From: Candidatus Wolfebacteria bacterium RIFOXYB1_FULL_54_12
Lineage (GTDB): Bacteria > Patescibacteriota > Minisyncoccia > UBA6257 > UBA9933
Direction of reading: 5' to 3'
Assembly: GCA_001793895.1 (NCBI GenBank)
Contig: MGIT01000001.1
Span: 106,508 to 170,507 of the forward strand
DNA: 64,000 nucleotides
The position numbers and the translations under genes were made by a program. The notes below the pieces were generated by a model, which was given only the letters and a program-made list of their open reading frames with translations, had not been told where the DNA came from and did no database searches. Every line of letters starts with the position of its first letter. The first letter of the stretch is position 1. Below, piece by piece: positions 6,127-7,922 of the stretch.

Positions 6127-6549
6127 TCAGTTAAAACCGTGCTGGTTGAAGAAAGGGGTAAATTTCTTATCCATGCCAAGAATATGCTCCTGCAACCATG
6201 TCCCCGAATACATCGCCATCTCTTCGGCAAGTTTTTGCACATCCACGTCCGGCTTTTGTATTTCATTCATAAAACGATTCGCGATCATGTCACGATACGC
6301 ATCATGCGCGGCGACATGTGTCGCAGTGTCCTCATAGTTGAATCCCCTGAAAAAACTTTCTTCGGTACTCAAATGATACAATGCATAATCTCCAAGTTCG
6401 CCGAACAAATTGGACAAAGCTTCCCGATCCGGGCTTTTCTCCCGGGAAATCGACGCCAGTTTATTTGCAATGGCAAAAAAATGTTGATGCTGTTCATCCA
6501 CCAACTGCACACCGACGCTGTACTCCGAAGTCCAAATAAATGTATCCAT
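6127..6549 (-). CDS. hemerythrin-like (bacteriohemerythrin) metal-binding protein
   Basis: 140 aa with an HHE cation-binding pattern: the start is MDTFIWTSEYSVGVQLVDEQHQHFF, and several H..H / H...D ligand positions follow. Confidence 0.6.
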   Translation of the reverse strand: MDTFIWTSEYSVGVQLVDEQHQHFFAIANKLASISREKSPDREALSNLFGELGDYALYHLSTEESFFRGFNYEDTATHVAAHDAYRDMIANRFMNEIQKPDVDVQKLAEEMAMYSGTWLQEHILGMDKKFTPFFNQHGFN

Positions 6550-6625
6550 AAAAAAATGGGTTAATTATTAAATATTCGCCTACACTTAAGAATAGCATAA
6601 GTAATCGGAATGCTCCACACAAAAC

Positions 6626-6834: not shown

Positions 6835-7599
6835 TCAGAAAAGTGCACGAAAGATCCGGTCGCGCATCTTCCTATCGTCAAGTGCGATGACTTCTTCATA
6901 CAGCGTTACCAGATCATAGACCAGCTTGGCCCGATCGGTATACAACCGAAGGTCTTCGATGCGCCCGGCAGATACCATGCATTGCCCGCTCGCGGTAAAC
7001 GATGCCCGTGCGGCACTTTTTACCATGGCCAAGGTTCCGCACTCGCCTTGCATGCACTCAAGTTCATGGACCTTGTACGGAAAGCACTCGGAATGAAAAT
7101 CGCTTGCCTGAAACGCACTTTGCCCCGGATCATGCCGGATGAACTTGAATGCCTTCCCGTTTCCGGTGTAAAGAAATTTGATGTTTCCCGCGGTATCGGC
7201 CGGCGAGCTGCTCAAAGCGCCGCCGGTAAACACCGTGATGGCGACGTTGGTCGCAATACACGCTTTACCCTGACGCTCGACCGTCATAACCGTGCGTATC
7301 ACATCCGTCCTGCTTGCCCACATGGATATGGGCGTGATCGCGGCACCATTACGCAACCGCTGTCCGATCGCACGGCGGGTAAGCATTTCGATACTGCTCA
7401 ATCGCTGGGGGCTGGGATTGCCCCGCGCAGTCGCGCGCAATATCCTGCACACTCCATCCAATAAACTCTGCATCGACGATTCCTCCTCTCTTTCGGATTC
7501 CGTGATACTGAATATGTAAACAGAACTGCACCTATTTAACCCCACAATTATGTAAAAGTCAATAATAATCGTTTTATAACAAAAAAAGGGTTCCCTCAC
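6835..7599 (-). CDS. hypothetical protein between the tRNA genes; the true start is probably the internal MQSLLDGV
   Basis: 254 aa ORF. Its composition is more protein-like than the overlapping plus-strand ORF 6724..7464. No recognizable motif. Confidence 0.35.
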   Translation of the reverse strand: MREPFFCYKTIIIDFYIIVGLNRCSSVYIFSITESEREEESSMQSLLDGVCRILRATARGNPSPQRLSSIEMLTRRAIGQRLRNGAAITPISMWASRTDVIRTVMTVERQGKACIATNVAITVFTGGALSSSPADTAGNIKFLYTGNGKAFKFIRHDPGQSAFQASDFHSECFPYKVHELECMQGECGTLAMVKSAARASFTASGQCMVSAGRIEDLRLYTDRAKLVYDLVTLYEEVIALDDRKMRDRIFRALF

Positions 7600-7606
7600 A
7601 GAATCC
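7578..7606 (-). terminator. hairpin plus T-run downstream (minus-strand sense) of the tRNA-Phe 3'-end paralog
   Basis: aaaaaggg ttccctcacagaatcc tttttt. The loop motif CCTCACA is shared with the tRNA-Phe terminator at 7801..7830. Confidence 0.35.
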
Positions 7607-7621
7607 TTTTTTGTTTATTCA

Positions 7622-7775
7622 AATCCCTTTCGGTGCCGCGGGAGGGAGTTGCCTACAAGTCTCGCTTCGCCGCCGCTCAGCGAGCTCGCAGGCCGCCCCT
7701 CGCGATGTGCCCTGCTGGGCCGCATATCGCTGCGGTCTTAAACTCCCCACGCGGGCAAAGCAGTTTGCCCGCTCC
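7622..7775 (-). ncRNA. candidate structured RNA or att-site remnant. It is a 154 nt GC-rich segment closed by a GGTGCCG/CGGCACC stem, and it reuses the 3' 20 nt of tRNA-Phe.
   Basis: The segment has internal palindromes (gcgagctcgc, and gcgggcaaa-ctgc-tttgcccgc). Its GC content is far above the surrounding sequence. It shares a 38 bp exact direct repeat with the tRNA-Phe 3' flank. Confidence 0.2.
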
Positions 7776-7800
7776 ACGGCACCAACCAGATAAAAATAAA

Positions 7801-7830
7801 AAACATACTCCTCACAAGTATGTCTTTTAT
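7801..7830 (-). terminator. rho-independent terminator downstream of tRNA-Phe
   Basis: acatact-cctcaca-agtatgt, followed by a T-run on the minus strand. Confidence 0.5.
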
Positions 7831-7848
7831 TTTATTCAAATCCCTTTC

Positions 7849-7922
7849 GGTGCCGCGGGAGGGAGTTGAACCCCCGACGCTTGCCTCTTCAGGGCAACGC
7901 TCTACCGCTGAGCTACCGCGGC
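7849..7922 (-). tRNA. tRNA-Phe (GAA)
   Basis: Reverse complement reads GCCGCGGTAGCTCAGCGGTAGAGCGTTGCCCTGAAGAGGCAAGCGTCGGGGGTTCAACTCCCTCCCGCGGCACC. The anticodon loop is cTGAAga. Confidence 0.85.

Follow-up and report, generated by a model that had tools for sequence, protein, structure and literature searches.

A structured RNA family 3' of tRNA and tmRNA genes in Patescibacteria, with one copy behind tRNA-Phe of a Wolfebacteria genome

Introduction

The repeat of the tyrT locus of Escherichia coli was first described in 1978 and, to our knowledge, the RNA associated with it, RttR, does not occur outside the tyrT locus of enterobacteria. RttR is a known stable RNA whose role is still called unclear (bioRxiv 10.1101/2024.07.17.603846). 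Here we describe a small structured RNA element that lies directly 3' of the gene for phenylalanine transfer RNA (tRNA-Phe) in a stretch of 64,000 nucleotides from Candidatus Wolfebacteria bacterium RIFOXYB1_FULL_54_12 (contig MGIT01000001.1); the whole stretch is called the window below. The E. coli tyrT/RttR repeat is its closest analogue. We consider it fairly probable that the interval 7614-7868 is tRNA-Phe sequence together with a single copy of a dispensable small RNA element whose copies have spread to various tRNA and transfer-messenger RNA (tmRNA) genes of Patescibacteria. On this reading the element targets tRNA tails and is probably mobile.

Other systems offer partial parallels. 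The T-loop is a classical sublocation for integrases. The primer-binding sites of long terminal repeat (LTR) elements can pair with the last 18-22 nt of one particular tRNA, from the T-loop to the 3' end, and the element is similar in this respect; RNA replicons and retroplasmids carry tRNA-like 3' tags, and the RNA of the element likewise has a tRNA-like 3' end. Group I introns have been reported in tRNA genes of Patescibacteria (PMC13011429). In our literature searches we found no description of the element, the sole related items being that paper on Patescibacteria tRNA introns and a mention of RttR.

Results

The element behind tRNA-Phe

The tRNA-Phe gene has a sigma-70-like promoter (TTGAAA-16-TATAAT, 7977-7950). 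Read along the minus strand, the gene is followed by an 18-nt trailer, a terminator-like hairpin, a GC-rich RNA of 152 nt, the same 18-nt trailer once more and a second hairpin (Table 1). Within this order there is an exact 38-nt direct repeat (tttattcaaatccctttcggtgccgcgggagggagttg) at 7831-7868 and 7614-7651, with a spacing of 217 nt, that widens to 44 nt at 95% identity; its tRNA-derived part of 20 nt occurs exactly twice in the window, where 0.01 occurrences are expected by chance. A preliminary description of the locus had recognized this repeat of the tRNA-Phe 3' end, which is real and exact, and had correctly identified the copy at 7831-7868 as the final 20 nt of tRNA-Phe with 18 nt of the adjoining 3' flank; the other copy had been placed 10 nt off, at 7604-7641, giving a spacing of 227. 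Each copy does have a hairpin with the shared loop CCTCACA (plus strand) as described, but the hairpin comes after the copy in the minus-strand sense and not before it. Likewise, the GC-rich segment is genuine (GC 0.67 versus ~0.37-0.42 in the flanks), whereas its limits are ~7652-7783 rather than 7642-7775. The hairpin at 7793-7833 and its flanks make up an imperfect long palindrome that links the tRNA 3' end to the 5' arm of the element.

The 152-nt RNA (7783->7632, minus strand) folds with -95.4 kcal/mol and z = -7.2, and z = -8.3 is obtained when its flanks are included. Its closing stem, GGUGCCGUGG:CCGCGGCACC, is built on the duplicated tRNA end; the pairing of the far end cggcacc (7777-7783) with ggtgccg (7632-7638), pointed out previously, thus holds. 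As for the two internal hairpins that had been proposed, gcgggcaaa/tttgcccgc is real and corresponds to the side hairpin P2, but the palindrome gcgagctcgc forms no real helix, its bases being assigned by covariation to P5a (CCUGCGAG:CUUGUAGG) and P5b (CUCGCU:AGCGAG). Rfam 15, searched at gathering and permissive thresholds in the window and nine loci, has no match on the element (E <= 10 in the window), and Rfam and ARAGORN scans of the element region detect a single tRNA, the true tRNA-Phe at 7849-7922.

Several other identities were considered and rejected. A 39-codon open reading frame (ORF) starting with ATG spans the core in the window, but it is destroyed by a 2-nt indel in the related locus L003. 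An intron of the T-loop, or of any kind, is contradicted by the sequence itself, as removal of the core would leave no loop and no functional T-arm. The signature motifs of the hammerhead and other three-way-junction ribozymes are missing, and Rfam finds no match to them. The group I intron model RF00028 is silent on the element, though the same search finds the intron in tRNA-Phe of L003 (61.3 bits).

Table 1. Features of the tRNA-Phe locus, in the order in which they are read along the minus strand
Feature	Positions	Strand	Remarks
tRNA-Phe(GAA), host gene	7849..7922	-	ARAGORN; Rfam RF00005, 68.5 bits; CCA not encoded; no intron
Direct repeat, upstream copy in RNA sense	7831..7868	-	From T-loop C56 to the 3' end of tRNA-Phe (20 nt), then 18 nt of trailer
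Terminator-like hairpin between tRNA-Phe and element	7793..7833	-	Loop UGUGAGG, U-run; inverted repeat of 17 nt, 94% complementary
5' arm A2', GGUGCCGUGG	7774..7783	-	Complementary to CCGCGGCACC in the tRNA-Phe tail (acceptor 3' strand and ACC)
Side hairpin P2, GCGGGCAAA-CUGC-UUUGCCCGC	7751..7772	-	Fold; seen in most lineages
5' strand of P1 = arm A1', GGGGAGUU	7741..7748	-	Pairs with tail AACUCCCU
Conserved three-way-junction core	7652..7740	-	21-sequence alignment; covariance model R1
Parts of the core, in order			J1/3 UAAGA; P3 and P4 (loop AGCA); J3/5 GGCGG; P5a; P5b; apex GAGCGRCGGCGA; end ACUUGUAGG
Direct repeat, downstream copy = tRNA-like tail of the element	7614..7651	-	CAACUCCCUCCCGCGGCACC at 7651->7632, then 18 nt of trailer
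Second terminator-like hairpin, 3' of the element	7582..7612	-	12 pairs, 7-nt loop UGUGAGG, T-run
Neighbouring 212-aa ORF	6835..7473	-	

A family with a conserved and covarying core

Homologues were collected by a metagenome scan with a conserved 19-mer and by BLAST, and then by a scan of GTDB with a core pattern. The latter returned 62 loci, among which true homologues have a 6-nt spacing and a downstream ACUUGUAGG; hits with gaps of 5, 7 or 8 nt in GC-rich genomes lie inside coding sequence and were discarded as chance matches. We find about 30 copies in all, and the named source genomes are all Patescibacteria, namely Wolfe-, Jorgensen-, Colwell-, Gribaldo-, Uhr- and Nomurabacteria, Paceibacteria and Saccharibacteria; L061, also from Wolfebacteria, has an element of the L003 type. 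Wherever the upstream gene can be identified, at 16 tRNA-hosted and two tmRNA-hosted loci, every copy lies directly 3' of it and on the same strand. The hosts are tRNA-Phe, Glu(CUC, UUC), Tyr, Ser, Arg, Trp, Val, Ala(GGC, UGC), Gly(UCC, CCC) and Leu, that is 13 tRNA species, and tmRNA. At the 22 loci measured the repeats are 166-286 nt apart and always enclose the same conserved core; at 15 of them the match of the tail to the host starts no more than one base from the core end (T-loop position 56/57). The longest exact match between tail and host ranges from 7 to 38 nt, and L038 has a match of ~66 nt at ~92% that includes the terminator.

The cores (~95 nt) of 21 sequences align nearly without gaps, and their structure is a three-way junction. 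Cells at paired positions are paired in 91.9% of cases, compared with 34-51% in slid controls, and the covariation score is 0.522, compared with 0.075-0.18. Double changes are present in 24 of 35 pairs; pair 26:64 by itself occurs as C-G, G-C, A-U and U-A. None of 500 shuffles matches the observed values on four of the five summary measures, percentage paired and covariation score among them. Helix 1 (P1) is paired in 89.9% of cells, with double changes in seven of its eight pairs that follow the T-arm of the host. P3/P4 is a variable stem with the loop AGCA, P5a is invariant including its two G.U pairs, and P5b covaries. The apex of P5, GAGCGRCGGCGA, is invariant as well and may be read as tandem G.A pairs, two G-C pairs and a tetraloop. 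As judged from the alignment, the data strongly support a conserved, covarying RNA structure. The earlier suggestion of a tRNA-derived structured non-coding RNA is thereby borne out as regards structure, but only the arms and the tail come from tRNA, the core being a conserved module in its own right that also occurs beside 12 other tRNA species and tmRNA.

The covariance model R1 recovers 29 copies, including two tandem copies outside its training set (L088, 104.8 bits; L071, 33.6 bits), and none of the chance loci from the pattern scan. In the window it matches 7638-7759 with 120 bits (E = 6e-33), the only copy there. Some cores carry extra domains of ~95-100 nt, located between P4 and J3/5 in L079 (2818-3028) and between A1' and P4 in L057 (1084-1198), and L059 has a further expanded core (6515-6611). 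The core thus tolerates peripheral expansion, as large ribozymes and other structured RNAs do.

Arms and tail follow the host gene

On the one hand, the core is shared across hosts; on the other hand, the sequences around it change with the gene that the element follows. P1 covaries because the arm A1' follows the host T-arm, as seen in the A1'/tail pairs GGGGAGUU/AACUCCCU of the window, GGUGGGAUUC/GAAUCCCACC of L047 and GGGAUUUG/CAAAUCCC of L066. Upstream of A1', most lineages have the P2 hairpin and then the arm A2', which is complementary to the acceptor 3' strand and discriminator of the host and accordingly reads UGUGGACCC at tRNA-Ala, UGCGGGCCCAC at tRNA-Trp and GGUGGAGAUG at tmRNA. The tmRNA-hosted locus L015 illustrates the exchange. 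The same core lies 3' of a tmRNA gene (RF00023), the tail repeats 20 nt of the tmRNA 3' end without a change, the 5' arm UGUGGAGAU is complementary to that end, and the core is closest (91%) to that of L047, which is hosted by tRNA-Ser. Within Wolfebacteria, A2' varies to GGUGUCGUGG in L020 and to GGUGCUGCGG in L013, by C->U changes only, such that G.U pairs are kept. Arm variants that preserve G.U pairs, together with the invariant G.U pairs of P5a, point to selection on the RNA.

In the modelled fold, the RNA folded on its own tail is a mimic of the tRNA top half with a coaxial helix resembling acceptor and T-stem, in which P2 occupies the place of the tRNA body with its D and anticodon arms, and the core that of the T-loop. 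The arms are equally complementary to the real tRNA upstream. The host 3' end, trailer, hairpin, trailer' and A2' [P2] A1' constitute a long palindrome; in L068 it runs for 39 bp without a mismatch, and in L057 for 29 bp. The tails are truncated or mutated in L057, L068, L098 and L041, while the palindrome with the upstream tRNA is still perfect. The two trailer copies are identical within each genome and different between genomes (GAAAGGGAUUUGAAUAAA in the window, AAUAUGGGAUUUGA in L020), which indicates either concerted evolution or recent re-insertion.

In this lineage the loop UGUGAGG is kept in every terminator-like hairpin around tRNA-Phe and the element (window, L003, L011, L012, L013 and L020), while the stems are completely different and still paired. 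Between genomes, hairpin types also trade places, the GACAUACU type being 3' of the tRNA in the window and 3' of the element in L011. Such swapping suggests that units have recombined with each other, or that the loop may have a function.

Filled, decayed and empty sites

Contigs of relatives were taken from the clusters of homologues of the neighbouring 212-aa ORF, and a comparison for presence or absence of the unit, as envisaged in the preliminary description, reveals filled, decayed and empty sites. In L003-L006, with an ORF 92% identical to that of the window, the element is present and 98% identical, tRNA-Phe contains a group I intron and a sequence resembling a miniature inverted-repeat transposable element (MITE) is inserted before the ORF promoter. 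L011 (ORF 86%) also has the element, with a P2 stem that is fully exchanged (ACAAGUGAA-CUGC-UUCACUUGU) around an unchanged loop. The site of L013 (ORF 62%) is decayed, the first ~60 nt of the element being left and fused to the ORF promoter, and that of L012 (ORF 65%) is empty, tRNA-Phe, trailer and hairpin leading straight into the ORF promoter. All sequence 3' of the element tail aligns as orthologous to the sequence that follows tRNA-Phe at the empty site of L012, and a filled site has exactly one unit and one repeat more than an empty one. Given this orthology, the unit behaves as a repeat-bounded insertion that can be lost or decay.

A single Colwellbacteria contig holds four copies, on tRNA-Tyr, Arg, Val and Leu, whose cores are mutual nearest relatives (74-89% identity) and whose arms are each matched to their own host. 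Close kin on different tRNAs of one genome, together with empty, decayed and tandem states, argue for spread to new tRNA genes and for an element that is non-essential. Tandem arrays of two elements occur in L088 (1957-2255) and L071 (373-635). The second copy of L088 has arms that match tRNA-Gly(CCC) and a tail, CGATTCTCGTACCGCGCACA, from a different tRNA-like end; this mixture suggests recombination between units at different hosts.

A partner protein was not found. At the 24 loci compared, no family of proteins turns up repeatedly within +/-4 kb, the sole 'families' being spurious ORFs across the element; Pfam reports no integrase among the neighbouring ORFs of the window; and pattern scans of IMG/VR and BLAST searches against phages and plasmids give no match.

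The locus has other sources of variation. A group I intron of ~245 nt interrupts the anticodon loop of tRNA-Phe in L003 (3092-3346; RF00028, 61.3 bits) and likewise in L004, L005, L006 and L020, and because of it ARAGORN misses the tRNA-Phe gene in those relatives; as the window gene has no intron, presence of the intron is polymorphic in this Wolfebacteria group. The MITE-like insert (L003 3673-3899, ~227 bp) has terminal inverted repeats of 21 nt, CTAACGCACATTTTGGACAAA; it separates the element hairpin from the ORF promoter and is missing in the window, L011, L012 and L020. The notion of an integration hotspot, raised in the preliminary description, therefore applies in the limited sense that relatives have an intron in tRNA-Phe and a MITE-like insert nearby, but the ORF beside the element is not the cargo of an island. 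That ORF, taken before as 254 aa, is present; its most likely start is the ATG at 7473 with an AGGAGG ribosome-binding site, giving 212 aa as in public assemblies. It is syntenic beside the tRNA cluster in Wolfebacteria, its family is tiny (six clusters in 5.8 billion proteins, all metagenomic), and Pfam and PADLOC assign it to no family. Since it is kept with or without the element (L012, L013), we read it from synteny as a resident gene and not as cargo. Two public contigs with the exact window ORF, L001 and L002, end 43-85 nt upstream of it, beside the element; either assemblies seem to break at the repeat or palindrome, or the population seems polymorphic at this point.

Comparison with described systems

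For the comparison with RttR we used E. coli K-12 and the 178-bp repeats of tyrT/tyrV (rttR 1287066-1287236; RF00391). The two systems have much in common. Both RNAs come right after a tRNA gene and share its strand, and both occur in tandem copies. The 178-bp unit ends in a copy of tRNA-Tyr from the T-loop (AAUCC...) through the 3' end into the trailer, and an internal GGGGAAGGAU pairs with the tRNA-derived tail AUCCUUCCCC, closing the RNA. Moreover, the hairpin CUC-GAGCGCCAGCGA-GAG resembles the P5 apex GAGCGACGGCGA, 10 of the 12 bases of the loop GAGCGCCAGCGA being identical to the invariant apex. On the other hand, RF00391 has no match on the element (E <= 10 in the window; E <= 0.5 in six loci of the candidate phyla radiation, CPR), and R1 scores at most 8.8 bits on rttR, locally at the P5 apex and without significance, so that homology is not demonstrable. 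The fold of RttR has z = -1.1 against shuffles (not significant), as opposed to -7.2 for the element, and the element has another three-way-junction core and an intervening hairpin. The Patescibacteria family sits on 13 tRNA species and tmRNA with arms re-matched for each host, unlike RttR. The resemblance in apex and closure may reflect convergence or very distant homology.

Integrase-type elements at tRNA and tmRNA genes resemble the element in having a direct repeat from the T-loop to the 3' end of the gene or beyond, an insert that restores the 3' end, the use of both kinds of gene and an empty site in relatives. Unlike them, the unit is just ~170-290 bp and has no integrase or cargo, it is a structured RNA with RNA-type covariation plus an inverted copy of the target, and a single sequence family has many targets, even in one genome. 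In contrast to LTR elements and retroplasmids, there is no linked reverse transcriptase, the arm is interrupted by P2, and complementarity in L015 tracks the genomic trailer (ACA) rather than an added CCA. The group I introns of Patescibacteria are likewise small RNA-only elements of the same genomes and the same genes, but the element lies outside the tRNA and RF00028 does not match it.

Discussion

A fixed RNA core that is found behind many tRNA genes and tmRNA, each time with arms and tail that fit the local gene, may be understood as follows. The unit would enter a tRNA or tmRNA gene at its T-loop, as a tRNA-targeting integrative element does; the gene would receive a fresh 3' end with a hairpin, and the old 3' end would become the tail of the unit. 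Transcripts of the unit would have the same sense as the tRNA and would most likely come from its promoter by read-through. Through the tRNA-like tail, the enzymes that mature tRNA 3' ends, by RNase Z-type trimming and CCA addition, could then set and stabilise the 3' end of the RNA, by analogy with E. coli RttR, and the arms would serve as the part that recognizes the target. Any mechanism is constrained by the presence of both direct and inverted target copies in each new copy, which are either templated at insertion or homogenised later by gene conversion. Conceivably, the element represents a new kind of mobile unit, programmed by RNA, in which the split 5' arm (A2'-P2-A1') guides the RNA to the segment from T-loop to 3' end, in the transcript or in the gene, and the core catalyses joining at 55/56 or recruits an unlinked host enzyme. 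Such programming would explain why the direct and the inverted target copy are renewed at each new host, and why the tail reaches the trailer and even the terminator, as if it came from a primary transcript; we hold this proposal to be rather unlikely, yet to have a real chance.

Several observations weigh against a spreading, dispensable element of this design. We find no linked recombinase, reverse transcriptase or nuclease, and thus movement itself is something that we infer. The Wolfebacteria lineage shows vertical inheritance at tRNA-Phe, and it is from other genomes that we infer mobility. Group II introns are reported to be absent from Patescibacteria in a published study of 95 complete genomes (PMC13011429), a finding that makes retro-type models less likely; as no reverse transcriptase is linked either, such models are unsupported at present. 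Expression poses a similar difficulty. The promoter scan finds nothing promoter-like ahead of the element, and a terminator-like hairpin separates it from the tRNA, so that expression by read-through is an assumption. Nor are arms and tail complete throughout the family. The truncated tails in L057, L068 and L098 mean that the closed tRNA-like fold is not universal, the Colwellbacteria copies have no P2 and no A2', and in these copies and L038 either A2'/P2 or a good 5' strand of P1 is missing. The match between arms and tail could be upheld by gene conversion with the adjacent tRNA, and not by re-templating at each insertion. Finally, the scans of the collections used exact patterns, so that the choice of pattern may account in part for the restriction to Patescibacteria.

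In one alternative, the element is a small RNA of the tRNA operon that benefits the host and is functionally equivalent to RttR. It would be released from the tRNA transcript by processing and have a role in the maturation of tRNA or in stress signalling; inheritance would be mostly vertical, and the repeats would reflect processing. Conservation and covariation of the core across class-level lineages of Patescibacteria agree with this, as do selection at the RNA level with maintained G.U pairs, the retention of the element at tRNA-Phe through several Wolfebacteria species and the identical layout of E. coli rttR, a known stable RNA (bioRxiv 10.1101/2024.07.17.603846). Yet the host varies between genomes across 13 tRNA species and tmRNA, the number of copies per genome runs from one to at least four with intragenomic copies being closest kin, close relatives have empty and decayed sites, and several copies are tail-truncated, or tandem and degenerate. 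Given these host changes, copy numbers, empty or decayed sites and degenerate copies, a selfish element fits better than a housekeeping RNA, and we regard the beneficial small RNA as an unlikely explanation.

Still other explanations start from the repeat or from the neighbourhood. The preliminary description had taken the duplicated tRNA end for a remnant of attachment (att) sites, and the repeat indeed begins in the T-loop and the context after its second copy equals the empty site, the downstream sequence being orthologous to that of L012; however, a remnant of a larger island is not supported. If attL and attR of a deleted integrase-driven island or prophage were all that is left, with the GC-rich piece as a leftover, one would not account for 22 of 22 measured loci with only 166-286 bp and the same structured core between the repeats, for the lack of an integrase, a recurring neighbour gene or any phage, plasmid or IMG/VR match, or for a core that covaries as RNA, and the 5' arms complementary to the tail would be purposeless in a scar; we consider such a scar highly improbable. 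We give next to no credence to the idea that the element, as a leader or in the manner of a riboswitch, regulates in cis the 212-aa ORF that follows it. The element does lie ~140 nt upstream of this ORF on the same strand, but a U-run hairpin and the ORF's own conserved TTGACT promoter intervene, the ORF of L012 retains position and promoter without the element, downstream genes are unrelated in other genomes, and the orientation of the element follows the tRNA. Hardly more credible is a degenerate duplicate of the tRNA gene or an artefact of assembly: the tail is identical to tRNA-Phe and the closing stem is acceptor-like, as in a pseudo-tRNA, but neither ARAGORN nor the Rfam tRNA model detects one, the middle is a conserved non-tRNA core common to elements on other hosts, and independent ENA, JGI and GTDB assemblies contain the same structure.

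By duplicating 3' ends of tRNA and tmRNA genes and creating long palindromes, the element may break assemblies and could mislead predictors of att sites and islands. The family also offers a comparative handle on RttR. As a structured RNA family new to Rfam 15, it extends across much of Patescibacteria, organisms with tiny genomes in which conserved non-coding sequence is unexpected. The combination of a fixed core with exchangeable arms and a tail copied from the host implies either re-templating of both target strands or unusually efficient homogenisation, and either would be new biology.

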